Of a stretch of DNA of 64,000 nt, positions 6,569 to 26,715 are shown piece after piece. Source of the DNA: Rhodothermales bacterium (lineage in GTDB: Bacteria; Bacteroidota; Rhodothermia; Rhodothermales; JBHHWM01). The notes beneath the pieces were generated by a model. The model was not told the DNA's origin and made no database searches. It worked only from the letters and a program-made list of their open reading frames with translations. A program made the translations under genes and the position numbers. Numbering within the stretch: position 1 is the first letter of the stretch; each line of letters opens with the position of its first letter. Location: NCBI GenBank assembly GCA_046756545.1, contig JBHHWM010000002.1, positions 5,776 to 69,775 of the forward strand, written 5' to 3'.

Positions 6569-6784
6569 GACGGGGGACGTGCTGAATTGAGACAACGGGG
6601 TAGGGTATGCGTGATAGCGGCACCCCCTTTCGAACGCGCTTTCAATACGCGCATTGCGATAAAGTTCTGGCAGGGGTGTATGAAAATATGGTAGGGATTT
6701 GCCGAAAAAAATACATAGGATTCTTGTGCAAGCATGGGGCATAGCCGCACGCCGGGAGCCCTCCGATAGGGCGGCGTAGCGCGG

Positions 6785-7300
6785 TCATGCCTCCTGCTGG
6801 CGGACGATCTCCCAGACGAAGTGCTTCAAGTCGGGCAGGATGAGTTTGTCGAGGGCCAGCTTGACCGCGTTGAGTGACCCGGGCATCGAGAAGACGAGGG
6901 TGTTCTGGTAGACCCCCGCCGTGGCACGAGAGAGCATGGCGGCGGGGCCGATCTCTTCGTAGGAGAGCATCCGAAACAACTCGCCGAAGCCGGGAAGTTT
7001 TTTTTCCAGCATCGACGAGATCGCTTCATACGTCTGGTCGCGCTTGCTGATGCCGGTGCCGCCGTTAAAGAGCACCACTTCGACCTTCCCGGCCAGTTTT
7101 TGCAGCACCTGCCGGATGATGGCTGGTTCGTCGGGGACGATGCGATAGAGGACGGTGGTATGCCCGGCTTTTTCGAGGCGCACTTGCGTCAGCCCGCCGC
7201 TGCGGTCGGTTTCTTCGGTGCGGGTGTCGCTGATGGTAATGACGGCACAGCGGATCTTGGCGTATTGTTCGGCAGAGGTTCGATGCGCTTTATGGCTCAT
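6785..7300 (-). CDS. moaB: Molybdenum cofactor biosynthesis protein B (MoaB/MogA family)
   Basis: It has the MoCF_biosynth domain motifs [21 protein letters not shown] and SMPGSLNAV. Its ATG overlaps the yidD stop (ATGA at 7297-7300). Confidence 0.8.
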
Positions 7301-7685: not shown

Positions 7686-8453
7686 CTATTTTTTGGAGCG
7701 ACGATCCCGAACCGGACGGACGGGACGCTTCACCCGGCCGCTGAAGGTGCGGGTGCGAAGGCGGTTGAGAATCGAAGATCGGCGTTTGGACACCCGGTTC
7801 GCTATGGATTTGTCGGCGGACGGGTTTGCCTCGGAAGAGGCTGCCTCGGTCCGGTTTGACGCCAGCGCGGGCGAGGCGTCTCCCTCATCAACATTGTCGA
7901 AGAAGCGGAAGCGCTGGGGGTCGATGCCGAGCCGGGCCGAGGAGAGCGACGGGGCGTTCTCCGCCCAGTGCGGGGTGCGCCCGCCGTCCATCGAGACGGG
8001 GCTGTAGAAGTGGCGCGTCGTGATCGGGAAGGGGCGCTTGGAGGCTGGTGCCCGGTAGACGTCCAGCGCGATGCCGAGCGCCTGCCGCCAGGAAGCGGAC
8101 AGGCTGTGTTGGTTGAGGCTCAGAATATGGTTGCGCCGGGTCGACGGCTCGTTGAAGGCACTGAACTGGCGGGGCTCCAGCACCACTTCGCGGTACGATT
8201 CCCCCCGATAGGCAGTCTCTACCCGGTTGCGCACCACCCAGGCCACCAGCCGTTGCTCATGTGCGCGGTCGCTCTCGGAGTAGATGCACCGGGCCAGCCA
8301 TAGCACCTCGTCTAGCTGGAGCGGCGAGAGCCGGCGAACCTGTGCGCGCAAGACGGACGCGGGCGAAGGCGTAGCCGTCTGGGCCGTGGCCTCGTTCATC
8401 GAAAACAGGAAGAGCAGCGCGAGAAGCACCCCCCACCGATAGCCTGGTGTCAT
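7686..8453 (-). CDS. SleB-family (Hydrolase_2) cell wall hydrolase, exported, with a basic C-terminal tail
   Basis: The core is LWLARCIYSESDRAHEQRLVAWVVRNRVETAYRGESYREVVLEPRQFSAFN. I trimmed the start to MTPGYRWGVLLALLFLFSMNEATAQ (signal peptide). The C-terminus, KRRSSILNRLRTRTFSGRVKRPVRPVRDRRSKK, is strongly basic. Confidence 0.7.
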   Translation of the reverse strand: MTPGYRWGVLLALLFLFSMNEATAQTATPSPASVLRAQVRRLSPLQLDEVLWLARCIYSESDRAHEQRLVAWVVRNRVETAYRGESYREVVLEPRQFSAFNEPSTRRNHILSLNQHSLSASWRQALGIALDVYRAPASKRPFPITTRHFYSPVSMDGGRTPHWAENAPSLSSARLGIDPQRFRFFDNVDEGDASPALASNRTEAASSEANPSADKSIANRVSKRRSSILNRLRTRTFSGRVKRPVRPVRDRRSKK

Positions 8454-15518: not shown

Positions 15519-15628
15519 GGTTGAAAGGAACCATCCTTGCCGGAGACTACACGGCGTTGATGGCCGTGTTTTTGGCCCTAATGGTTCGATAAATCCACCG
15601 AGACGCGCAAACCAATACGTTCGGAGGT

Positions 15629-17512
15629 TTGGTTGTGCCTGGGAACGTTGGCGGCTCTCGCTTTTTTGCCTGCTTGCTCATTGGCTGCTGCTGGCTATGC
15701 GGGGCAGTCGGTGGGAAGGTGCACGGATACGGGCAGCAGGGAGAGCGAGTCGATAAAGATGATCGAGTGGAAGTATACCTGTCGCTGCTGGGGAAGGCGG
15801 GGGCTGTGTTGCCGGAGGAGGAACGCCAGGCCGCGCGCCGACAGGTCGCTCAGATGATTCTGTTGCTACCGGAGTCCGTGTTGAAGAAGGTCGTCCGTGG
15901 GAACGTGCGCACGTTGGAGGGACGGCTGCGTGAGGATTGGCGGATACTGCCGGGGGCCGGAGCCGTTCTTCTGGCATGGTGGCGCGCGCAAGATCCGCTC
16001 CCGAGCACGCCGCGCAACGAGCGGCTGGAGGAGCATTTGCGCCGGGTTGCCTATGCAGACCGGCACTATGCGGCCCCCGAGACGCTGACGGGGTGGGACG
16101 ACCGGGGCGTGATCTATGTGCGCCTCGACGCACCGGCTACAAAGAAGACGGTGCAATTCACGAATCCTCGACTCGTACGCATCCTGGAGAAGACAACCAC
16201 GCCGATCCGCCTCCAGGATTTTCCGGATAACGAGGTATGGGTCTACGATGAGATCGAGGAGTCGATCTATTACCTCTTCGTCGAGCAGGATGGCCGCTAT
16301 GTGTTGGCTTCCTCGGAGGATCTGATCCCACGCTCGCTACGCCTGGCGTCCGGCAGACGGACAACGCTCCTGCTGACCGATGTGCCGCCCGGAAAGACGG
16401 AGGTTTTGATGGAGGCGATGCGGGCCATCTACCAGGAACTGGCCCCCTACCACCCGGACTTTGGCGAGGCGTACGTCGAACTCGCCGTGTATCTCGATTC
16501 GGAATCGGATCAAGATGGGGTCCCTGCGCAGCGGGCGGAAAGCGAACGTAAATTCCCGGTACACCTGTATGCCCAAAATAGACTCATCGACATGCAGGTC
16601 AAGGAAGACCTCGCCCTGTTGACACGCGAGGAAACCGTCCCTCGCCAACGGTCGAAGGTCCTCGAAGAGGTACGGCCCTTTCCGGCGGTGGCTCGCGTGG
16701 CGCGTTTTCTGGATCCGGATGGGACTACGCGTACCGAGGTGTACTGGAGCGTTCCTGCCGCGACGGGCGTGAACTACCGCCTCTACGAACGCTTCTTGCT
16801 GACGGTATCGACCTCTCAGCGCCTGGCCGATTACACGACGCGCGTTGCACAGCGCAAACAGCAGACCGTGAGGACCGTGCTGAATGCGGGAGCGGAGTCC
16901 GTTCTGCCGGTTCAGACGCTCGTTATGCGCGGCGATACGGCGCGATATCATGTGGCGGTGCAATGGGATCAGTATCCGCTGATCGGAGAAGGGGACGCCA
17001 CGAGGAAAGCCTCCGACGAACCTGTCCGGCGCGGCGTCTTTCGGGCCGACAGTTTGCAGGCGCTCCAGAGCCGGCCGGACGTGCTGGAGATGAGCGATCT
17101 GGTGCCCGTCGTTGCATCGGAGGGGATGGATCTCGATGGGGACGACGGGCGTCCGGCCCTGTCGCCGTATCCCTTTTCTACCTTCTCCAGAGGCGATTCG
17201 CTGGGCCTGTATTTCGAGGTGTATCACCTTGCTTTTGGAGCCGATGACCGGACGCGTTTTTTCGTGGAGTATGAAGTAAGGCGTCGAGAAGCCGGGGGCC
17301 TGTTTCGTCTGTTTCAAGACCGGCAGACGCGTACGTCGGCCCGCACACGATACGCCGGCCGTACCCGCACGGCACGCGAATGGATAGGGCTGGCGTTGGA
17401 AGAGGGAGACAAAGCGGCCGATGTGGAAGTGGTCGTGCGCGTAACGGACGAGACGACGCATCAGGTGACAGAGCGGTCCGTAGTGTTGAGGTTTGTTCCG
17501 CCGGATCGATAA
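15629..17512 (+). CDS. GWxTD domain-containing protein
   Basis: The segment WWRAQDPLPSTPRNERLEEHLRRVAYADRHYAAPETLTGWDDRGVIYVRLDAP matches the GWxTD family pattern (W..DP..T..NE...EH..R..YA....GWxxDRG.iY). The ORF-track start is a TTG, so the true start is uncertain. Confidence 0.6.
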   Translation: MVVPGNVGGSRFFACLLIGCCWLCGAVGGKVHGYGQQGERVDKDDRVEVYLSLLGKAGAVLPEEERQAARRQVAQMILLLPESVLKKVVRGNVRTLEGRLREDWRILPGAGAVLLAWWRAQDPLPSTPRNERLEEHLRRVAYADRHYAAPETLTGWDDRGVIYVRLDAPATKKTVQFTNPRLVRILEKTTTPIRLQDFPDNEVWVYDEIEESIYYLFVEQDGRYVLASSEDLIPRSLRLASGRRTTLLLTDVPPGKTEVLMEAMRAIYQELAPYHPDFGEAYVELAVYLDSESDQDGVPAQRAESERKFPVHLYAQNRLIDMQVKEDLALLTREETVPRQRSKVLEEVRPFPAVARVARFLDPDGTTRTEVYWSVPAATGVNYRLYERFLLTVSTSQRLADYTTRVAQRKQQTVRTVLNAGAESVLPVQTLVMRGDTARYHVAVQWDQYPLIGEGDATRKASDEPVRRGVFRADSLQALQSRPDVLEMSDLVPVVASEGMDLDGDDGRPALSPYPFSTFSRGDSLGLYFEVYHLAFGADDRTRFFVEYEVRRREAGGLFRLFQDRQTRTSARTRYAGRTRTAREWIGLALEEGDKAADVEVVVRVTDETTHQVTERSVVLRFVPPDR

Positions 17513-17519
17513 TCGCGCC

Positions 17520-18875
17520 TCACTCGGGCGCGATCCAGCCGGTGCGGCCCGACGGCGAGGCGACGTAGAGAAACGACTCGAACCGGCCGAGGACCGCTAC
17601 CGGCGTTTCCGCCGCCAGGCTGTCGATCGAAAGAGCCGTCGGTGCGGGGAAACGACGCATGGGCCGGCCGTCGGCCAGGCGCACCTCCTGGACCGGACGT
17701 TGCGCCGGTTCGATCTGGACGGCCGCGACGTAGCCGATGGTGCGGTCCGGGAGGCGCACGCGGTACCAGGTGCCGCTGCCCCCGGCCACGTAGAACGCCG
17801 TATGACGCGGCAAGGTGCGGAGCACCTCGGCTCTGGAACGAGGTGCCGCGCGCAACAAGGCGCGGTTGATTGCCACGCGGGTCCACTGGCCGAAGCGGCT
17901 CGTGTCTACGCGGAGGGTAGCGGGCCGGGCACGGGGTACATGGATGAAGGGAAAGGGGTCCACAGGACCGTTTCGGTAAATGCCGAAATGCAGATGCGGC
18001 GGCGTGGTGCGGGCGTTGCCAGTGTTGCCGACGAGCCCGACCGTGTCGCCCACGGACACGCGCATCCCCTGGCGTACGATCTGGCTGTCGAGGTGGGCGT
18101 AGTAGAGGCTGCGTCCGAAGCTGTCTCGAAGCCATACGACCTTCCCGCCGAGCCCTCCGTTGCGCACGCGTGTCACGGCGGCGTTGGCGGCTGCAATGAC
18201 GGGCGTGCCTCGCGCTGCGAAGATATCGACTCCGTGATGTCGGCGTCGGCCCCCGTCGCGGGGGGCTCCGAAGACGCTGCGGATGGCGTCGCTATTCTTG
18301 CCGGCCACGGGGAAGGCGAGCGAGGCGTCGGTCTGGGCGGTGATGGTGTAGCGTCCTCCTCGCAATAGCTCGGGCTGCACGCGCAGGAGGTAGGTGCGCG
18401 TCCGGCGGATGGTGTAGGCGAGCGTTCGCGTGCTGTCGGCGGCGCTGCGGATGTGCCGGGGGGTACCGGTCGAGTCGCGGGGCGCTTCGAAGAGATCGAC
18501 GAAGACACGGGCCGTATCACCGGGTTGCGTGGTTACGTCGATCAGGAGTTGTTGGCCCCGTTGCAGGTCGAAGCGATACCCCACCGCCGCCGGCTGTGCC
18601 GGGTCGAGGTAGCGGGCTTCGCGAAAAGGAAGCGCGATGGAGGTCGCTTCGTCCAACGCACCGAGGCTTGCATCTAGCCATGTCCGGGCCAGCGCTGTTT
18701 CCATCAGCCCGGCTTCTCCCAACGCTGCGGCATATTGTTCGTGGGGTGTCAGCCGTTCGAAGGATGCGCGAACGGATTCTACCTGTTCGCAACCGGCCAC
18801 TACGAGCGCTCCCATCAGCAAGAGCGTTGCATTCATCAGCCCACAGGTCCATGACGTTGGCAAGCGATACAGCAT
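17520..18875 (-). CDS. M23 family metallopeptidase with C-terminal SH3-like region
   Basis: It has the motifs HHGVDIFAARGTPV and GNTGNARTTPPHLHFGIY (LytM/M23). The start may instead be MNATLLLMGALVVAGC (lipobox) at 18836. Confidence 0.85.
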   Translation of the reverse strand: MLYRLPTSWTCGLMNATLLLMGALVVAGCEQVESVRASFERLTPHEQYAAALGEAGLMETALARTWLDASLGALDEATSIALPFREARYLDPAQPAAVGYRFDLQRGQQLLIDVTTQPGDTARVFVDLFEAPRDSTGTPRHIRSAADSTRTLAYTIRRTRTYLLRVQPELLRGGRYTITAQTDASLAFPVAGKNSDAIRSVFGAPRDGGRRRHHGVDIFAARGTPVIAAANAAVTRVRNGGLGGKVVWLRDSFGRSLYYAHLDSQIVRQGMRVSVGDTVGLVGNTGNARTTPPHLHFGIYRNGPVDPFPFIHVPRARPATLRVDTSRFGQWTRVAINRALLRAAPRSRAEVLRTLPRHTAFYVAGGSGTWYRVRLPDRTIGYVAAVQIEPAQRPVQEVRLADGRPMRRFPAPTALSIDSLAAETPVAVLGRFESFLYVASPSGRTGWIAPE

Positions 18876-19091
18876 GAGTGACGTGTTTGGTGAGTAGAAA
18901 CAGGGTTGTTTCCCGAGACAACATTCGAAGGTACGCCAAAATAGTTTCGAACGAAGCGCGCAAGTACGCGGGTCCGCCGCCGGAGGCCCGTCGGTCTTGT
19001 TTCTGACACATCGTGTGCTGTTTCGTTGCTCCGGCTGCGCAAGCTATGGTGTCGCGGGTAGGGCACAAATGCGTCCCTATGTCATCGCTGC

Positions 19092-19120
19092 TGTAAACGA
19101 TCCTCGATGCCCGGGTGTCT
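19092..19120 (+). promoter_or_regulatory. Candidate ECF-type promoter TGTAAAC-N17-TGTCT upstream of the DUF5916 gene
   Basis: I read TGTAAAC at 19092-19098, a 17-nt spacer, then TGTCTCAA from 19116. The same -35-like and -10-like words occur at identical spacing at 22457-22485. Confidence 0.35.
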
Positions 19121-19388
19121 CAATAGGTAGCCTGGAGGGGGTGCAGCACCGTTCTGAAGACGAGGCTCAGGCAAAGGGGGCCGGGCAGTCGAGTGGGCCA
19201 CCGAGGTGATCTCCAAAAAAAAACAACTTTTTTGAGGTCGCGTGCATCCCTGCTAAAAAATTACCGTAGGGGAAATGCTAGAATACTAGCGTCTTTGCGT
19301 TGTGCTCTCTTTTAACCTGGGAAAAGCGTGCACGAGCGCTGATTTCTGCCTCGAAACGCCATCCTCTGGATCAAGCCAAGGACCCACC

Positions 19389-22118
19389 ATGACACGACTG
19401 GTACAGTACCTAAAATTGCTATTTCTCCTTTTCATTCTGAGTACACTGGCCTTCCCGATAGGGTCATCGGCACAAACGCCGCAACCCGTGAAGGACCAGG
19501 AGACGCTGGCGGCCAATCGCGTAGCCGACGACGTAACCATCGACAGGGAATCGGCCCGCCGGCGGGTGCAGGCCATGCGCCGGGAACTGGACCTCTCGGT
19601 CGATGGGCGGCTGGACGAGGCGGCCTGGCAACAAGCGCCCGTCATCGACGGTTTCCTGCAGCGCGAACCGGTCGAAGGAGCCGAGCCGACCGAACGCACC
19701 GTCGTGCGTATTCTCTACGACGACGAGGCCATCTACATTGGCGCACGCATGTTCGACACCGCGCCCGATTCGATTATTGCCCGTCTGGGCCGCCGTGATG
19801 CGCAACTGGATTCCGATATGTTCGGGTTTTTCATCGATCCCTATCTGGACCGCCGCACCGGATTCTACTTTGCGATCAACGCCGCCGGAACGCTCATGGA
19901 CGGCGTGCTCATGAACGACGACTGGGACGACGACACGTGGGACGGCGTCTGGCAGGGCAAGGTCAAGGTTGACGACGAGGGCTGGACGGCGGAGATGCGC
20001 ATTCCCTATTCGCAGCTTCGGTTCCACAAGAGCGACAGTTATACCTGGGGGATCAATTTCCGCCGCGACATCTCTCGCAAGAACGAGCAGATCTATCTCG
20101 TCTACACGCCGCGCAAAGAAAGCGGGTTCGTCTCCCGGTTCGTCGATCTGGTGGGCATCGAGCATATTAAGCCGCCGCGTCAACTCGAAGTAACGCCCTA
20201 CATCACCTCGCAGGCGGCGTTTACCGACGCCGCAGAGGGCAATCCGTTTGACGACGGCTCGACCTTTACCCCCGATTTCGGGGCTGATTTCAAAGTTGGG
20301 CTCACCAGCAACCTGACGCTGAACGGAACGGTCAACCCGGACTTCGGGCAGGTCGAGGTGGACCCGGCGGTGGTCAACCTGAGCGACGTCGAGACCTTCT
20401 TTCCCGAAAAACGTCCTTTCTTTATCGAAGGGGCCACCATTTTCAACTTCGGGCGCGGCGGCTCGAACAACAACTGGGGCTTTAACTTCGGCAATCCCAG
20501 CTTTTTCTATAGCCGCCGCATCGGGCGTTCTCCGCAGGGCAGCATGCCGGCTCACGATTATGCCGACCGCCCTGATGGAGCCCGCATCCTCGGCGCGGCC
20601 AAGCTCACCGGCAAGGTAGGCGGTAGCTGGAATGTCGGGACGGTTCAGGCCGTGACGGGTCGGGCCATGGCCGAGCTGGACCGGGGCGGCGACCGGTTCA
20701 AAGCCGAAGTGGAACCGGCCACGTACTACGGCATCGTGCGGGCGCAGCGCGAGTTTGACGAAGGACGCCAGGCCCTCGGCTTTATGTCGACCACAACGGT
20801 GCGGTCCTTCACCGACGACCGGCTGCGCGACGAGATCAACAGCGAAGCCTTTACCTTCGGTGTGGACGGCTGGACCTTCCTTGACCGGGACAAAACGTGG
20901 GTGATTACCGGCTGGCTGGGGGGGACGCACGTGCGCGGTTCCACCGAGCGCATGATTCGTCTGCAACGCAGTTCGCAGCACTACTTCCAGCGTCCCGATT
21001 TCAAAGCGGCCAGTCTCGACAGCAGCGCCACCTCCATGACCGGCGTGTCGGGGCGGGTGATGCTCAACAAGCAGCGCGGCAACTTCACCACGAACGCAGC
21101 CATCGGGTTCATATCGCCGTCGTTCGATGCCAACGACCTGGGCTTCCAGTGGCAGACCAACATCATCAACGCGCACGTGGTGGGAAGCTATCGGTGGACG
21201 GAACCGAAATCGTTCTACCGGCGCATTCACGTCAACGCGGCGCTCTTCCGCAGTATGGATTTTGATGGAAATACGACCTGGACGGGCGTTTTTGCGAACA
21301 CCTTTATGATGTTCAAAAACTACTACAGCTTCTTTATGGGGGGGGCCGTCAACCCGCAGACGACGAACAACCGCCGCACGCGTGGAGGCCCGCTGACGCT
21401 CAACCCGTGGGGCTGGGAGGTCTTTGGCGGAGCCAGTACCGACAGCCGCAAAGCGTGGGTCTTTAGTGTGAATGGGTTCTCGTATCGGACGGAAGCAGGG
21501 AACAGCGCCAATATCGGCATCGGTGTCGAGTGGAAGCCGGCGGCCAATGTCTCGCTTTCGGTCAGTCCGGGCATTAACTGGAACGAATCCACGGCGCAGT
21601 GGGTGGGTGCCTACGATGACCCCACCGCCGAGGCCACCTTCGGGCGGCGCTACGTCTTCGGCCATCTGGATCAGACGACGTTCTCGTCCAACGTCCGCCT
21701 CAACTGGACCTTTACGCCGGAACTCAGCCTGCAATTGTTCGCCCAGCCGCTGATCTCGGCAGGCGACTATACCGACTTCAAGGAGTTGAAGCGTCCCAAG
21801 AGCTACGACTTCATGATTTACGGCGAAGAGGGATCGACGTTTGACGAAGAGACCTTCATGGCCGATCCGGACGGCGACGGCCCGGTGGCACCGCTGGAGT
21901 TGTTCAACCCGGACTTCAACTTCAAGTCGCTGCGTGGCACGGCGGTGCTCCGCTGGGAGTTCCGGCCCGGTTCCACGCTCTTTCTCGTCTGGACGCAGAC
22001 CCGCGACGACTTCGAAGAGATTGGTGACTTCCAGTTCGGGCCGTCGTTTGGACGTCTCCTGGACGCCAAGCCGGACAACATTTTCATGCTGAAGTTTACC
22101 TACTGGTTATCGCGTTGA
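19389..22118 (+). CDS. DUF5916 / CBM9-like domain outer-membrane protein
   Basis: It has the signal peptide MTRLVQYLKLLFLLFILSTLAFPIGSSAQ. The N-terminal region, VDGRLDEAAWQQAPVIDGFLQREPVEGAEPTERTVVRILYDDEAIYIGARMFD, is typical of CBM9-like + DUF5916 proteins. The long C-terminal part is rich in beta-strands and ends FMLKFTYWLSR. Confidence 0.7.
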   Translation: MTRLVQYLKLLFLLFILSTLAFPIGSSAQTPQPVKDQETLAANRVADDVTIDRESARRRVQAMRRELDLSVDGRLDEAAWQQAPVIDGFLQREPVEGAEPTERTVVRILYDDEAIYIGARMFDTAPDSIIARLGRRDAQLDSDMFGFFIDPYLDRRTGFYFAINAAGTLMDGVLMNDDWDDDTWDGVWQGKVKVDDEGWTAEMRIPYSQLRFHKSDSYTWGINFRRDISRKNEQIYLVYTPRKESGFVSRFVDLVGIEHIKPPRQLEVTPYITSQAAFTDAAEGNPFDDGSTFTPDFGADFKVGLTSNLTLNGTVNPDFGQVEVDPAVVNLSDVETFFPEKRPFFIEGATIFNFGRGGSNNNWGFNFGNPSFFYSRRIGRSPQGSMPAHDYADRPDGARILGAAKLTGKVGGSWNVGTVQAVTGRAMAELDRGGDRFKAEVEPATYYGIVRAQREFDEGRQALGFMSTTTVRSFTDDRLRDEINSEAFTFGVDGWTFLDRDKTWVITGWLGGTHVRGSTERMIRLQRSSQHYFQRPDFKAASLDSSATSMTGVSGRVMLNKQRGNFTTNAAIGFISPSFDANDLGFQWQTNIINAHVVGSYRWTEPKSFYRRIHVNAALFRSMDFDGNTTWTGVFANTFMMFKNYYSFFMGGAVNPQTTNNRRTRGGPLTLNPWGWEVFGGASTDSRKAWVFSVNGFSYRTEAGNSANIGIGVEWKPAANVSLSVSPGINWNESTAQWVGAYDDPTAEATFGRRYVFGHLDQTTFSSNVRLNWTFTPELSLQLFAQPLISAGDYTDFKELKRPKSYDFMIYGEEGSTFDEETFMADPDGDGPVAPLELFNPDFNFKSLRGTAVLRWEFRPGSTLFLVWTQTRDDFEEIGDFQFGPSFGRLLDAKPDNIFMLKFTYWLSR

Positions 22119-22190
22119 GACGACAGCGCGTTGCGAGGTTGGGGCGGTCAACGGTCCATCGTGCAACGCCGTCTGGGGGAGGGAGGGTAC

Positions 22191-22226
22191 AGCCTCCATC
22201 GGTTCGCCGGTGGAGGCTGTTTTTTT
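22191..22226 (+). terminator. Rho-independent terminator after the DUF5916 gene
   Basis: AGCCTCCA (22191-22198) and TGGAGGCT (22211-22218) form a perfect 8-bp stem around a 12-nt loop. The stem is followed by GTTTTTTT. Confidence 0.65.
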
Positions 22227-22456
22227 GGAGCCACCGCAGGGAGGATTCGGTGTGTGGACAAATCCTCGGCTCATCGATTCATCTACACCTCCATGCTTAC
22301 CTTTAACCCATGTTGTGCTCCCCTTGGGTTGCAACGACGCATCGGGAAAACGACGAACCGAAGAGAGGTTTCCCGCTGGTTTGCTCGTCGATTCATCGTC
22401 TCGCCGTCTCCTCGTTTCCACGTTGCGACCGAAGGGCACAACGTGAGTTACCTTTA

Positions 22457-22485
22457 TGTAAACGCTCTCGTCGCTCCTGCTGTCT
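22457..22485 (+). promoter_or_regulatory. Candidate autoregulatory ECF-type promoter TGTAAAC-N17-TGTCT
   Basis: I read TGTAAAC at 22457-22463, a 17-nt spacer, then TGTCTAA from 22481. This lies about 25 nt upstream of the sigma-factor ATG at 22511. AAC-N16/17-(C/T)GTCT is the general ECF promoter architecture. Confidence 0.35.
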
Positions 22486-22510
22486 AAGGGGATGAGCAGA
22501 CGAGGAACTG

Positions 22511-23083
22511 ATGCAGCTAACCAAAACCCTGGTGACCGAACCCCTTCAGCGTAGCGAGCCGCGTACGTTCTGCGAACTGGTGGAACAGTATCAACGGCCC
22601 CTCTATGCCCTGGCCTACGATCTCACCGGCAATCATCATGATGCCGAGGATCTGTCTCAGGAAGTCTTCATCAAGGCGTATCGGGGAGTCTCCGGCTTTC
22701 GGGGCGAAGCGCAGTTGTATTCGTGGCTCTATCGGATTGCCGTCAATACGTACCTGAACAAGCGGCGCAAAAAGGCGCTTCGTTTCCGGCAGTTATGGGA
22801 CGACTTCAGCCAGGCACCCCGCGACCACGCTCCGCAGCGCGGCCCCGAGGAACACCTGGAGGCGGATGCCATCCGGCAGCACGTAGATGCGGCCCTGAAA
22901 ACGCTCTCGCCACGCGAGCGCTCGGCGTTTGTGCTGCGTCACTACCAGAACCTTTCGCTGAAGGAAGTTGCTGCGGTCATGGAAGTGGCCGAAGGTACCG
23001 TCAAGAGCCTGCTGTTTCGGGCAATGCAAAAGCTGCGTACCTCGCTCGCTTTTTACCGTGAAGACCTGGGGTTGCCGTCTTGA
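22511..23083 (+). CDS. RNA polymerase ECF-type sigma-70 factor
   Basis: It is 190 aa. Region 2 is DAEDLSQEVFIKAYRGVSGFRGEAQLYSWLYRIAVNTYLN. Region 4 is LSPRERSAFVLRHYQNLSLKEVAAVMEVAEGTVKSLLFRAMQKLR. Confidence 0.92.
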   Translation: MQLTKTLVTEPLQRSEPRTFCELVEQYQRPLYALAYDLTGNHHDAEDLSQEVFIKAYRGVSGFRGEAQLYSWLYRIAVNTYLNKRRKKALRFRQLWDDFSQAPRDHAPQRGPEEHLEADAIRQHVDAALKTLSPRERSAFVLRHYQNLSLKEVAAVMEVAEGTVKSLLFRAMQKLRTSLAFYREDLGLPS

Positions 23084-23178
23084 GGGGCATGCGATGTAGC
23101 CCCGCCCCTTGACGCTGTGAAAAACCGCACACCGCGCAGGACTTGAAACGACATACCGGTCAGCCTGACCGAACGACC

Positions 23179-24030
23179 ATGAAACACTGTCCGACCTACG
23201 AGCCGCTGATGACCGAGATGTTTTTCGGTACGTTGAGCGAGGAAGACCGGGAACGGCTCGATGCCCACCTGGCGTCCTGTTCCGGATGCCAGGCCATGGT
23301 GCACGAGATGGAAGCCACGCTCCAGGTCGCGGATGCCGGCACGCGGCCCGAGCCTCCGGAAGCCTTCTGGGACGGCTACTACGAGCGCCTCGTCGCGCGC
23401 ATGCATGAGGAGACGCATCGCGCGAACCGTGCCCAACGCCTGAATGAATGGCTGCGCGACATGGGACGGCTGAACGTGGCTGCCCTGGGGCTCACACCGC
23501 GCCGGATCTTCCAGCTTTCGGGCGCTGTGGCCTTGATTGCCGTCGGTGTGTTGATCGGATGGCTGGTTTTTGGTTCTTCGTCTTCGCCCGTTCCCGGCGT
23601 GGCCCACGATCCGTCGGTGGAAGAGGTGCCGGTACGGGCCGCGTCGCTGGAGGCACGCACCGACCGGTATCTCGAACGCTCCAAGGTATTACTGCTGGGC
23701 CTGGTCAACATGGAGCCTGAACGGGATGGCGTTGTCCTGAACCTGAGTCGCAAGCAAGAAGTGGCCCGCGAACTGATCGAGGAGTCGAGCACGCTCAAGG
23801 CGGCGTTGAGCGACGAGGATCAGCGGATGCTGCGTTTGCTGATCGAAGACCTGGAGGTGATCCTGCTCCAGATTGCCAACCTGGAGACCCGTTACGACCT
23901 CTCTGCTATCGAACTGGTTCAGCGTGGGGTAGATCGCCGGGCCATCCTGCTCAAGATCAATATCACGGAAATGCGCCGTGCCGATAACCCACTCCAGCCT
24001 GCCGTAGAGTCTACACTACCTGACCGTTAA
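23179..24030 (+). CDS. Anti-sigma factor (zf-HC2 N-terminus, single TM, helical extracytoplasmic domain)
   Basis: MKHCPTYEPL...LDAHLASCSGCQAMVHEM is the H-x3-C-x2-C zinc-binding anti-sigma motif. The TM helix is AVALIAVGVLIGWLVF. The gene lies immediately downstream of the ECF sigma gene. Confidence 0.72.
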   Translation: MKHCPTYEPLMTEMFFGTLSEEDRERLDAHLASCSGCQAMVHEMEATLQVADAGTRPEPPEAFWDGYYERLVARMHEETHRANRAQRLNEWLRDMGRLNVAALGLTPRRIFQLSGAVALIAVGVLIGWLVFGSSSSPVPGVAHDPSVEEVPVRAASLEARTDRYLERSKVLLLGLVNMEPERDGVVLNLSRKQEVARELIEESSTLKAALSDEDQRMLRLLIEDLEVILLQIANLETRYDLSAIELVQRGVDRRAILLKINITEMRRADNPLQPAVESTLPDR

Positions 24031-24056: not shown

Positions 24057-25532
24057 ATGTGTAAGCAACGTACTCGTCCCTTGTTACGGCTCGGAGGCGG
24101 CATAATCCTGGTGATAGGACTGCTCGGGCTGGCGTGGCCCGCAACGGTCAGTGCCCAGAGCGAGGCGGCGCAAGCCTACGAAGCGGCCTACGATCTGGTT
24201 ATCGACGAAGACTGGAGCGCGGCCGCCGACGCCCTCCGCGATTTCGTGCGGCAGTATCCTCGCAGCGACTGGGTCGATGATGCCGAGTTCTGGCAGTGTT
24301 ATGTACTCGAACAGGCCGAACGCTCTCCCGAGCAGGCATTCGATTGCTATCATAGCTTCGTCAAGGAGCAGCCCCGGAGCAAGTGGACGGACGACGCCAA
24401 GTCCAACGTGATCCGCATCGGGCGGGGGTTGGTACGGAGCGGCAAGCGCGAGTACCAGGCCATCGTCGAGTCGATGCAAGAAAACGGCGATGACGAGGTG
24501 AAGCTCGCCGCTCTCGATGCACTGTGGCAGATGGGCGACGAACGCGCCCTGGAAGCCGTGCTGGATCTGTATGCGACGTCGAGCAGCGAGCGATACAAAA
24601 AGAAGATCGTGTTCGTGCTCTCCCAGTTCGACGACGCCCGGGCCGCCGATAAACTCAAGGAAATCGCCCTCGACGACCCGGAGCCGCAGATCCGCAAGGA
24701 GGCTATTTTCTGGCTCAGCCAGCGCGACGGCGCAGAGGTCATCTCGCTCCTGGAAGAAATCGCGAAAGAGGAAGACGATGTGGAGGTGCAGAAGCAAGTG
24801 GTCTTTGCCTATTCGCAACTGGGCCGCGAAGGCGTGCCGCAACTGATCGACATGGCCCGGGGGCATCGAAACGCGGAAGTCCGCAAAGACGCCATCTTCT
24901 GGCTCTCGCAGATGGGTGGGAGTGAAGCCCTGACCTTCTTCGATGAACTGATCGATGCGAGTGACGATGAGGAAGTGCAGAAGCAGCTTGTGTTCGCGTT
25001 TTCGCAGTTGGGGCAGGAGGCCGTGCCGCGCCTGATTCGGATCGCGCGCGCCCACAAGAGCCGCGAGGTGCAGAAAGACGCTATTTTCTGGCTGAGCCAG
25101 CAGGGCGGTGCCGAGGTGCTGGACTTTTTCGACGAACTGATCGATGCGAGTGGCGATGAAGAGGTGCAGAAGCAACTTGTGTTCGCGTTTTCGCAGTTGG
25201 GTAGGGAAGCTGTGCCGCGCCTGATCCGCATTGCGCGCACGCACAGGAGCCGCGAGGTGCAAAAGGATGCGTTGTTCTGGCTGGGTCAGGAAGGCGGTGC
25301 CGAGGTGCTGGACTTTTTCGACGAATTCATCGACATGAGCAGCAGTCTGGAGGTGCAGAAGCAGATCGTCTTTGCCTACTCGCAGTTGGGTCGCGAAGGC
25401 GTGCCGCGCCTGATCGAAGTGGCGAAGTCGCATCGCGATCCGGAGGTCCGCAAAGATGCCATCTTCTGGCTGGGCCAGAGCGACGACGAGCGTGCCCGTG
25501 AGGCCCTGCTGGAGATTGTGCGCGGACAGTAA
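24057..25532 (+). CDS. Exported HEAT (PBS-lyase-type) repeat protein with TPR/BamD-like N-terminal segment
   Basis: The signal peptide is ...LLGLAWPATVSA/QS. The N-terminal segment has a repeated P(R/K)S.W.DDA pattern. It is followed by about 6 tandem units of about 63 aa of the type EVQKQ.VFA.SQLG.E.VP.LI..A..H...EV.KDAIFWL.Q.GG.E.L.FFDE.I. Confidence 0.75.
   Translation: MCKQRTRPLLRLGGGIILVIGLLGLAWPATVSAQSEAAQAYEAAYDLVIDEDWSAAADALRDFVRQYPRSDWVDDAEFWQCYVLEQAERSPEQAFDCYHSFVKEQPRSKWTDDAKSNVIRIGRGLVRSGKREYQAIVESMQENGDDEVKLAALDALWQMGDERALEAVLDLYATSSSERYKKKIVFVLSQFDDARAADKLKEIALDDPEPQIRKEAIFWLSQRDGAEVISLLEEIAKEEDDVEVQKQVVFAYSQLGREGVPQLIDMARGHRNAEVRKDAIFWLSQMGGSEALTFFDELIDASDDEEVQKQLVFAFSQLGQEAVPRLIRIARAHKSREVQKDAIFWLSQQGGAEVLDFFDELIDASGDEEVQKQLVFAFSQLGREAVPRLIRIARTHRSREVQKDALFWLGQEGGAEVLDFFDEFIDMSSSLEVQKQIVFAYSQLGREGVPRLIEVAKSHRDPEVRKDAIFWLGQSDDERAREALLEIVRGQ
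24942..25319 (+). repeat. Two adjacent in-frame 189-bp tandem repeat units (the most similar pair of a longer HEAT-unit array spanning about 24.57-25.51 kb)
   Basis: My hand alignment of 24942-25130 against 25131-25319 found about 26 mismatches in 189 nt and no indels, or about 86% identity. The final 24 nt, GGTGCCGAGGTGCTGGACTTTTTC, are identical. Confidence 0.8.
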
Positions 25533-25626: not shown

Positions 25627-26715
25627 ATGAAATTCATCGTAACTATAGGGCTTCTTTTCACCGTTTTGGTGCTATGTCCGGCAAGGCTTCAGGCCCAGGA
25701 TGTCATCCGGCATCCGGATGCCTCGGAGGTCCTCGGCCAGAAGTGGGCGTGGGCCGAAGAGCAAGCCGGGCAACACGATTTTCAGCGAGGCTACTGGATC
25801 GGATACAGCATCGAACGCTTGATGGGCGAGCAGTCGTACATCGGCTCGTGGTCGAGTCGAAAACGACGCATGACGCTCCACGAACTGCTGTATGGCGAAA
25901 AGGCAGAGTTCGAGCCCGGACGGGGGCGAGCCTACTATCGCGACGGCGAGCCCGACCGCAAAGTGCTCAAGGAGGTGGCGCTTCTGTTTGAGTTCAGGCA
26001 AGGTACGTCGGAGCCGCACAACGTCCGCGTTACGAACCTGGCGGGGCACGTGGACCTGGAGCGCCATCCGTTGATCTGGCTGGGAGCGGCTGAGGATGAC
26101 GAAAGCCTGGACCTGGTGCAGCAGCAGTACGACCGGGCGCGGTCGGAGGATGCTCGAGAAGAGCTGGTCATGGCCGTGGCGATCCACGATGAAACCGAGC
26201 GGGTCGTCGCGATGCTGGAAGACATCCTCACCGGCAACGACGGCACGGATGTGCGCGAGAGCGCGGCCTTCTGGCTCGGCCAGCAGGATGACAGCCGGGC
26301 CCTCGACCTATTGATCCGGACGGCGCGGGATGATCGTTCTGAAGATGTGCGCGAACAGGCCGTGTTCGGTATCAGCCAGATGGATCTGGCGGCGGCTACC
26401 GAAGCCCTCATCGACCTGGCTCGCAACGCGCGTGGCGAGGTGCGCAAGAATGCCATCTTCTGGCTGGGTCAGAAAGCGTCGGAACGAGCCGTCGAGGCTC
26501 TGGGCGAAATGGTCGAAGAAGATGCGGATACGGAGGTGCAGAAACAGGCCGTCTTTGCGCTTTCCCAACAGTCCGATGACCGGGGTGTGCCGATGCTGAT
26601 CGAGATTGCCAAGACGCATCCGAAGGCAGCCGTGCGCAAGCAAGCCATCTTCTGGCTGGGCCAGAGCAACGACCCGCGCGCCCTGGAAGCTATCATCGAG
26701 TTGGCCAGAGGCTGA
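25627..26715 (+). CDS. Exported HEAT (PBS-lyase-type) repeat protein, second paralogue
   Basis: The signal peptide is MKFIVTIGLLFTVLVLCPARLQA/QD. The N-terminal domain of about 170 aa is unassigned. It is followed by repeats VRESAAFWLGQQDDSRALDLL, VREQAVFGISQM, VRKNAIFWLGQKASERAVEAL, VQKQAVFALSQQ and VRKQAIFWLGQSNDPRALEAI. Confidence 0.75.
   Translation: MKFIVTIGLLFTVLVLCPARLQAQDVIRHPDASEVLGQKWAWAEEQAGQHDFQRGYWIGYSIERLMGEQSYIGSWSSRKRRMTLHELLYGEKAEFEPGRGRAYYRDGEPDRKVLKEVALLFEFRQGTSEPHNVRVTNLAGHVDLERHPLIWLGAAEDDESLDLVQQQYDRARSEDAREELVMAVAIHDETERVVAMLEDILTGNDGTDVRESAAFWLGQQDDSRALDLLIRTARDDRSEDVREQAVFGISQMDLAAATEALIDLARNARGEVRKNAIFWLGQKASERAVEALGEMVEEDADTEVQKQAVFALSQQSDDRGVPMLIEIAKTHPKAAVRKQAIFWLGQSNDPRALEAIIELARG

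Follow-up and report, generated by a model that had tools for sequence, protein, structure and literature searches.

An ECF-type promoter word pair shared by a sigma factor gene and a neighboring DUF5916 gene in a Rhodothermales bacterium

Sigma factors of the extracytoplasmic function (ECF) type usually control their own expression, and their genes usually lie together with those of their regulators and targets (PMC7826278). A 64-kb stretch of contig JBHHWM010000002.1 from the metagenome-assembled genome of a Rhodothermales bacterium, referred to here as the window, contains an ECF sigma gene followed by genes for an anti-sigma factor and two HEAT-repeat proteins and, upstream on the same strand, a gene encoding a large protein of the DUF5916 family. 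The word pair TGTAAAC-N17-TGTCT precedes both the sigma gene and the DUF5916 gene, which raises the question of whether one sigma factor controls both units. The comparative evidence presented below indicates that the copy upstream of the DUF5916 gene (P1) is likely a functional ECF promoter read by the adjacent sigma factor, and that the DUF5916 gene and the sigma cluster very probably constitute one envelope-stress regulon. The genes and predicted promoters concerned are as follows:

19092-19123, plus strand: P1, predicted ECF-type promoter of the DUF5916 gene (exact match, 27.4 bits, 8/8 orthologs); its words are TGTAAAC(G) at 19092-19099 (-35) and (GG)TGTCTCA at 19114-19122 (-10), with the transcription start predicted near 19127
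19389-22118, plus strand: DUF5916 gene, 909 amino acids (Pfam DUF5916, 8e-64)
22457-22487, plus strand: P-sigma, TGTAAAC-N17-TGTCTAA, predicted autoregulatory ECF promoter (27.5 bits, cross-phylum conservation)
22511-23083, plus strand: ECF sigma gene, 190 amino acids (Pfam Sigma70_r2 and Sigma70_r4/r4_2)
23179-24030, plus strand: anti-sigma gene (N-terminal zf-HC2, 4.7e-07; one transmembrane segment; C-terminal domain of about 145 amino acids)
24057-25532, plus strand: HEAT1 gene, secreted HEAT-repeat protein (HEAT_2, 2.4e-39)
25627-26715, plus strand: HEAT2 gene, secreted HEAT-repeat protein (HEAT_2, 1.4e-23)

The word pair and the sigma gene

With its 12 specified bases at fixed spacing, TGTAAAC-N17-TGTCT matches the two strands of the window exactly twice, both times on the plus strand, at 19092-19120 (TGTAAACGATCCTCGATGCCCGGGTGTCT) and 22457-22485 (TGTAAACGCTCTCGTCGCTCCTGCTGTCT), and none of 100 dinucleotide-preserving shuffles of the window gave any exact match. 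In the upstream copy, TGTAAAC (19092-19098) is followed after 17 nt by TGTCTCAA (19116-19123), within the 513-bp intergenic region before the DUF5916 gene (18876-19388). In the sigma-proximal copy, TGTAAAC (22457-22463) is followed at the same distance by TGTCTAA (22481-22487), and 23 nt separate the latter from the sigma ATG at 22511. With the pattern loosened to GTAAAC-N15-19-GTC, only one more site appears, within the DUF5916 coding sequence on the opposite, minus strand (22099-22074), which corresponds to chance level (1.39 expected). A position weight matrix trained solely on sites from other genomes and then run on the window assigned 27.5 bits to the site at 22457-22487 and 27.4 bits to that at 19092-19123; the third-best position reached 13.7 bits, which falls within the shuffle maxima (9.8-19.1). 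Neither the relaxed patterns nor the matrix scan yielded further motif sites above chance in the window. A preliminary description of this locus had placed the word pair upstream of both genes and, scanning by eye, had found no further exact copy; its coordinates are all correct, the pattern search of both strands agrees with it, and its gene calls (DUF5916/CBM9-like, ECF sigma, anti-sigma and HEAT) hold by Pfam.

Comparisons were based on 2.55 Mb of fetched loci carrying sigma or DUF5916 relatives, each labeled L with a number. The sigma/anti-sigma/HEAT/HEAT cluster is kept in Rhodothermales and is also present in metagenome-assembled genomes labeled Ignavibacteria, KSB1, Calditrichia, Krumholzibacteriia and Acidobacteriota. 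The anti-sigma gene is syntenic in all sigma-ortholog loci examined, and HEAT genes come after the sigma and anti-sigma genes in several phyla. Exact TGTAAAC-N17-[CT]GTC is located 38-67 nt before the inferred sigma start in 14 distinct loci that span Rhodothermales, KSB1, Calditrichia and others (sigma identity 46-100%), and cultured Longibacter salinarum carries TGTAAAC-N17-TGTCG before its sigma ortholog. Degenerate forms, among them TGCGAAC-N17-CGTCTTA, TGCCAAC-N17-CGTCC and TGTCAAC-N16-CGAC, occupy the region upstream of the sigma gene in L002, L008, L011 and L012. When the five closest sigma relatives are aligned, conservation starts at the motif and runs through the short leader and the ribosome-binding site, and the sequence 5' of the motif is unrelated. 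Across the whole 2.55 Mb, 22 of the 28 distinct exact sites sit before sigma orthologs or before DUF5916 orthologs, with a chance expectation of about 2-3 as estimated from the number of specified bases.

These observations support a role of the sigma-proximal word pair as an autoregulatory ECF promoter that has been conserved, and at the sequence level the locus has every feature by which such promoters are recognized. The autoregulation to which the preliminary description pointed is supported by the motif kept in the 14 ortholog loci and in L. salinarum and by the unconserved flank in the closest relatives, and within the fetched loci the exact sites are concentrated at the two expected positions.

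A few ECF-type sites lie elsewhere. One exact TGTAAAC-N17-[CT]GTC site is situated 30 nt past a DUF5916 stop codon (L103:7454-7488) and another 2.5 kb upstream of a sigma ortholog, with no obvious plus-strand open reading frame (ORF) in this 2.5-kb interval (L088:2297-2331); both may be further promoters of the regulon. In L014:9033-9961 and L016:9037-9901, the ECF promoter is found about 950 nt upstream of the sigma gene, and the gap holds, as first gene of the operon, a gene for a secreted protein of 261-279 amino acids that is DUF4097-like by eye. DUF4097 genes also occur after the anti-sigma gene in L173 and flanking a paralogous sigma gene in L172.

The copy upstream of the DUF5916 gene

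Two further features frame the DUF5916 gene in the window:

17520-18875, minus strand: M23 peptidase gene (gene call)
22189-22227 (22189-22220 plus a T7 run), plus strand: strong intrinsic terminator after the DUF5916 gene (14-bp stem)

P1 was followed through eight distinct DUF5916 orthologs with 73-80% protein identity, namely the window, L081, L161, L162, L163, L164 (identical to L165), L166 (identical to L167) and L168. In all eight, the coding strand has TGTAAACG-N14-GGTGTCT(C/T)A at a distance of 186-317 nt upstream of the start codon. The invariant columns of the alignment are TGTAAACG and GGTGTCT.A, and none of the 14 spacer columns is invariant; the 17-nt spacing is maintained in all eight while the spacer letters vary, in intergenic regions that are 48% identical overall. 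Such a pattern is the classical phylogenetic footprint of a putative two-block promoter, and the conservation of both words and of their spacing in orthologous intergenic regions, suggested earlier as a check, was found throughout this set. P1 is also kept where the upstream neighbor is an epimerase gene and not the M23 peptidase gene (L162, L166), as well as where a sigma cluster is missing within 6 kb (L161, L163, L166). Its retention far from the sigma cluster is what a trans-acting sigma factor predicts.

Gene order links the DUF5916 gene to the same cluster. In other lineages it is the last gene of the sigma cluster, directly after HEAT2 in L008, L083 and L088 and probably in L092 too; the L083 contig begins inside HEAT1, so that the sigma and anti-sigma genes are not visible there. 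It adjoins the sigma cluster in L162 and L164 and lies close by in L168. Upstream sequence of at least 4 kb was available for 41 metagenomic DUF5916 loci; in 22 of these, an ECF sigma gene on the same strand ends no more than 5 kb before the DUF5916 gene, and a tight operon order of sigma, zf-HC2 anti-sigma, secreted protein and DUF5916 is observed. The arrangement in the window can therefore be regarded as a rearranged version of a widespread module, in which the DUF5916 gene stands upstream, behind its own terminator and with what appears to be its own copy of the sigma gene's promoter. An equivalent terminator is present in the relative L162, and since a terminator separates the DUF5916 and sigma units, two promoters would be needed. 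The earlier proposal that DUF5916 and the sigma/anti-sigma/HEAT cluster form one ECF-controlled envelope module gains support from both promoter conservation and gene linkage.

Several points weigh against P1 as a promoter of this sigma factor. P1 is absent from the Rhodocaloribacter orthologs L169 and L170 (66-68% identity) and from more distant DUF5916 genes, and L171 (65% identity) has only the degenerate CGTAATC-N17-TGTCTAA. A Rhodocaloribacter sigma ortholog, which would allow a promoter co-evolution test, was not identified among the 120 matches listed. The 297 nt between P1 and the ATG are an unusually long distance for an ECF promoter. In addition, the DUF5916 sites have fixed flanks of their own (G after AAC, GG before TGTCT) and differ slightly in this respect from the sigma sites, a difference that makes a paralogous ECF sigma factor of similar specificity conceivable.

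According to this alternative, P1 is a real ECF promoter read by a paralogous ECF sigma factor encoded elsewhere in the genome, and the two promoters reflect overlapping specificity and not one regulon. It would account for the absence of the invariant DUF5916 flanks (TGTAAACG and GGTGTCT) from most sigma sites and for the retention of P1 in the three relatives without a sigma cluster within 6 kb, and L172 does possess a paralogous sigma gene (36% identity) near DUF5916, with xxAAC-N17-xGTC words at both genes. What speaks for the adjacent sigma factor instead is that the 12 core bases and their spacing are identical at the two window sites, that the DUF5916 gene is collinear with ortholog clusters of this very sigma in L008, L088, L162, L164 and L168, and that no second ECF sigma gene was found in the 64-kb window. 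A paralogous reader of P1 is accordingly considered unlikely.

The L172 locus itself is arranged differently. Upstream of its DUF5916 ortholog (66% identity; region 7870-8001) the distal P1 is absent; the region contains TGTAAC-N4-TGCTAAAAAATTAGCGTAG, an ECF-like -35/-10 pair with the leader palindrome described below as spacer, and TGCCAAC-N17-CGTCTAA lies 75 nt before the DUF5916 ATG. The paralogous sigma gene (region 15614-16240), accompanied by HEAT and DUF4097 genes, is 5 kb away on the opposite strand and is preceded by TGCAAAC-N17-GGTCC. The TGTAAC-palindrome-CGTA arrangement of L172 is likewise seen in the Rhodocaloribacter loci L169 and L170.

The long leader and its palindromes

The distance between P1 and the DUF5916 start codon implies a long leader, in which several elements were distinguished:

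19127-19388, plus strand: predicted 5' leader from P1, about 262 nt (a leader of 186-317 nt is kept in orthologs)
19213-19237, plus strand: A-run/T-run tract followed by TTGAGG (19232-19237), possible -35 of a weak candidate proximal promoter of sigma-70-like type, P2
19242-19291, plus strand: conserved leader block GTGCATC-N..-CGTAG with palindromes O1 and O2 (invariant columns in the ortholog alignment)
19251-19266, plus strand: operator-like palindrome O1, 16 bp, TGCTAAAAAATTACCG (palindrome scan and alignment)
19276-19291, plus strand: operator-like palindrome O2, 16 bp, TGCTAGAATACTAGCG (palindrome scan and alignment)

The leader of about 260 nt had been raised as a caveat in the preliminary description, and this caveat is real; it is partly explained by the second conserved regulatory block inside the leader. 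O1 and O2 are the sole palindromes of the type TGCTA-N6-TAGC(A/G) in the 64 kb when up to two mismatches are allowed. A palindrome of this kind is located upstream of DUF5916 in all examined Rhodothermales orthologs (65-80% identity), including those that lack P1, and its density upstream of DUF5916 is about 20-fold over the background of all loci.

Related genomes carry the palindrome of the DUF5916 leader as an autoregulatory operator of blaI-family genes. In L018, L082 and L093, an extended form, GTGCTA-N6-TAGCAC, in 2-3 copies overlaps the TTGACA-N17-TATnTT promoters of Penicillinase_R (blaI-like) genes, and genes for BlaR1-type M56 peptidases come after these. The copies are found at:

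L018:5895-5929, L082:5877-5955 and L093:3832-3910: palindrome copies at blaI-like promoters

In L082:6007-12535 and L093:3968-12511, one strand carries a collinear series of genes, separated by short gaps, for BlaI, BlaR1, a secreted repeat protein and DUF5916, and in this lineage DUF5916 appears to belong to a BlaI/BlaR1-controlled cluster and not to an ECF operon. Dimers of the BlaI type repress via palindromic operators and are inactivated by proteolysis (PMC1935004). The leader palindromes suggest a second regulatory input to the DUF5916 gene, and the binding of a BlaI-like repressor encoded outside the window is proposed with moderate confidence. A single palindrome, TGCTAGATTTCTAGCA, was also noted in L004 (5003-6072), about 30 nt upstream of a gene that itself lies 4 kb upstream of the sigma cluster; its product, a secreted protein of 349 amino acids, shows homology to the repeats at the C-terminus of the L082 BlaR1.

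A weak proximal promoter may overlap the conserved block. Candidate P2 reads TTGAGG-N13-TGCTAAAAA, in which TTGAGG pairs with TGC-TAAAAA at 19251-19259, and its layout resembles the TTGACA-N14-TGCTAT...TAGCA of the blaI promoters in L018, L082 and L093. An A-run/T-run tract occurs in all close orthologs, and a TTG/TTC word is found in the orthologs too. Two results count against this second layer of control: P2 is weak by consensus and was not called by a generic promoter scan, and the 64-kb window contains neither a BlaI nor a BlaR1 gene. A weak tblastn match at 6696-6818 falls in a 171-amino-acid ORF (6785-7300) that is not BlaI-like. A sigma-54 promoter in the conserved block was rejected by inspection, as the GC-to-GC spacing does not fit the -24/-12 geometry.

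A structured leader RNA or riboswitch was rejected: the leader has no Rfam match at E <= 10 apart from a spurious snoRNA, and its minimum-free-energy fold is no more stable than that of shuffles (z = -0.85). A leader hairpin formed by CCCTGC and GTAGGG was likewise discarded, no compensatory changes being found across orthologs. Just 5' of the conserved block, the A9-CAAC-T6 tract at 19205-19240 forms a weak hairpin; the A-run/T-run tract could represent an UP-like element, a DNA bend or a weak attenuator.

These features bear on a further alternative, in which transcription from P1 stops at the A-run/T-run hairpin (approximately 19205-19240) and yields a short non-coding RNA, and DUF5916 is expressed only from a proximal, repressor-controlled promoter. 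The length of the leader, the hairpin with an internal U-run about 90-110 nt past the predicted start, and the location of the conserved promoter-like and operator block after the hairpin would all fit such an arrangement. Against it, the sequence from P1 to the A/T tract shows little conservation and ranges from about 45 to about 190 nt in length, which speaks against a functional RNA; no U-run follows the hairpin, the terminator scan gave no site at 19205-19240, and the absence of an Rfam match and of unusual fold stability adds to these objections. A short P1 transcript therefore seems decidedly improbable. Finally, the view that the second copy of the word pair is a chance match without function, for which one might cite the presence of two copies only, in a single window, and the unusual distance to the gene, is extremely remote, given the absence of matches in the shuffles, and is effectively refuted by the ortholog alignment, in which the pair is invariant around a variable spacer in all eight sequences.

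The encoded proteins and their relation to known systems

The DUF5916 start codon agrees with that of a 100% identical 909-amino-acid database entry, and the protein has an N-terminal hydrophobic segment. Besides the DUF5916 match, it gives a CBM9_1 match (6.8e-05, 23.3 bits) just below the 23.4-bit cut-off. An AlphaFold (AF2) model with a mean pLDDT (predicted local distance difference test) of 77.8, a pTM (predicted template modeling score) of 0.70 and about 40 strands consists of a signal peptide, a CBM9-like beta-sandwich and a very large beta-barrel. In Foldseek comparisons the sandwich matches 1i82 with a template modeling (TM) score of 0.77, and the top matches of the barrel are all outer-membrane proteins (Deinococcus SlpA, MtrB, LptD, SprA, SusC and porins), at low TM scores of 0.15-0.34. 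On the basis of this model, the outer-membrane label is a reasonable, provisional one. The best 120 DUF5916 relatives share 58-80% identity and originate from Rhodothermales, Ignavibacteria, KSB1 and other sources; a full-text literature search found no paper mentioning DUF5916.

The sigma factor contains regions 2 and 4 only according to Pfam and matches the sigma70-ECF model TIGR02937 (2.9e-35). Its nearest solved relatives are Mycobacterium tuberculosis SigE, RpoE and SigW; its NCBIfam matches are at the superfamily level only, with no equivalog or subfamily cut-off reached. The transmembrane segment of the anti-sigma factor corresponds to residues 120-150 of an ORF starting at 23143. HEAT1 and HEAT2 both have signal-peptide-like N-termini. 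Residues 33-114 of HEAT1 give sub-threshold matches to TPR models of the YbgF/CpoB and BamD types (TIGR02795, 1.5e-13; PF13525, 3.5e-05), a hint that HEAT1 may interact with Tol-Pal or with the machinery of outer-membrane assembly.

In relatives, HEAT repeats are fused to membrane transducers. A BlaR1 homolog with C-terminal HEAT repeats is encoded directly upstream of the ECF promoter of the sigma cluster in L018 (6357-8525), and in L. salinarum (L173:10594-11679) a zf-HC2 anti-sigma factor is fused to a HEAT domain with a weak HEAT_2 match. These fusions suggest that the separate HEAT proteins of the window act as sensory partners of the anti-sigma factor.

It is proposed that both word pairs are read by the sigma factor encoded at 22511-23083. 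P-sigma would drive an operon of the sigma, zf-HC2 anti-sigma, HEAT1 and HEAT2 genes, resulting in positive autoregulation, and P1 would drive the separately transcribed DUF5916 gene. An envelope signal would free the sigma factor from its membrane anti-sigma factor, probably with the participation of the periplasmic HEAT proteins, and both units would then be induced together. A second regulator, most likely a BlaI-like repressor from outside the window, probably gates DUF5916 expression, either by blocking transcripts from P1 or by controlling the weak proximal promoter P2.

The system shares a number of features with those of the RpoE/SigW type (E. coli sigma-E/RseA; B. subtilis sigma-W, sigma-X and sigma-M). 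These include a sigma factor with regions 2 and 4 only, a membrane anti-sigma factor with an N-terminal zinc-finger-type domain that is predicted here to be co-transcribed, an AAC -35 and a (C/T)GTC -10 that are 17 nt apart and immediately precede the sigma gene, and, as predicted here, a small regulon of envelope proteins. Unlike in those systems, the -10 word in Rhodothermales is TGTCT, and the genes conserved alongside encode a DUF5916 barrel and a pair of secreted HEAT-repeat proteins. To our knowledge, such HEAT-repeat and DUF5916 partners have not been described for RpoE/SigW-type systems. The main text of PMC7826278 mentions no HEAT-associated ECF groups.

The locus also resembles FecI/FecR/FecA and the ECF/SusC-type loci of Bacteroides, in which an ECF sigma factor, a membrane anti-sigma factor and a large outer-membrane beta-barrel (a predicted one in the window) are encoded together. 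In these loci, as predicted here, the barrel gene is a target of the sigma factor, and the barrel carries a carbohydrate-binding-like domain. The differences from these families are that the anti-sigma factor of the window matches zf-HC2 only, with no FecR match, and that its barrel lacks Plug, TonB-dependent receptor and STN domains by Pfam. The window was not assigned to the FecI/FecR/FecA type, as zf-HC2 is the sole match of the anti-sigma factor and the barrel shows only DUF5916 and the CBM9_1 match below the cut-off.

The likeness to BlaI/BlaR1 (MecI/MecR1) systems concerns the leader, whose palindromes are the motif that overlaps the -10 of Penicillinase_R genes followed by M56 peptidase genes in L018, L082 and L093. 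The operators of staphylococcal and Bacillus BlaI are of the TACA/TGTA type, unlike the TGCTA half-site of the window. Moreover, the predicted target in the window is an outer-membrane-type barrel and not a beta-lactamase, blaI and blaR1 are absent from the window, and one BlaR1 homolog (L018) bears HEAT repeats in place of the penicillin-binding sensor domain.

A more speculative possibility is that DUF5916 is not a mere passive target but the outer-membrane part of an undescribed trans-envelope signaling module, which must be regarded as doubtful. In such a module, the CBM9-like domain would sense a surface or glycan cue, and periplasmic HEAT proteins or domains would relay this cue to the zf-HC2 anti-sigma factor and to a HEAT-bearing BlaR1-type M56 protease. 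The two outputs, the ECF promoter P1 and the BlaI-type operators, would converge on the DUF5916 gene.

Overall, the locus very probably represents an ECF regulon of ordinary type whose cast, HEAT-repeat proteins and a DUF5916 barrel, is uncharacterized. It provides the first regulatory context for DUF5916, a widespread and highly conserved family of large outer-membrane-type barrels, and it supplies a promoter motif, together with a predicted minimal regulon, for an uncharacterized ECF sigma/anti-sigma/HEAT cluster of several poorly studied phyla. The motif permits regulon prediction in the genomes of these lineages, and the two promoters are simple reporter targets. The conserved pair of putative BlaI-type operators in the leader is an unexpected extra; if the palindromes do serve as such operators, two different envelope-signaling systems would converge on one gene.

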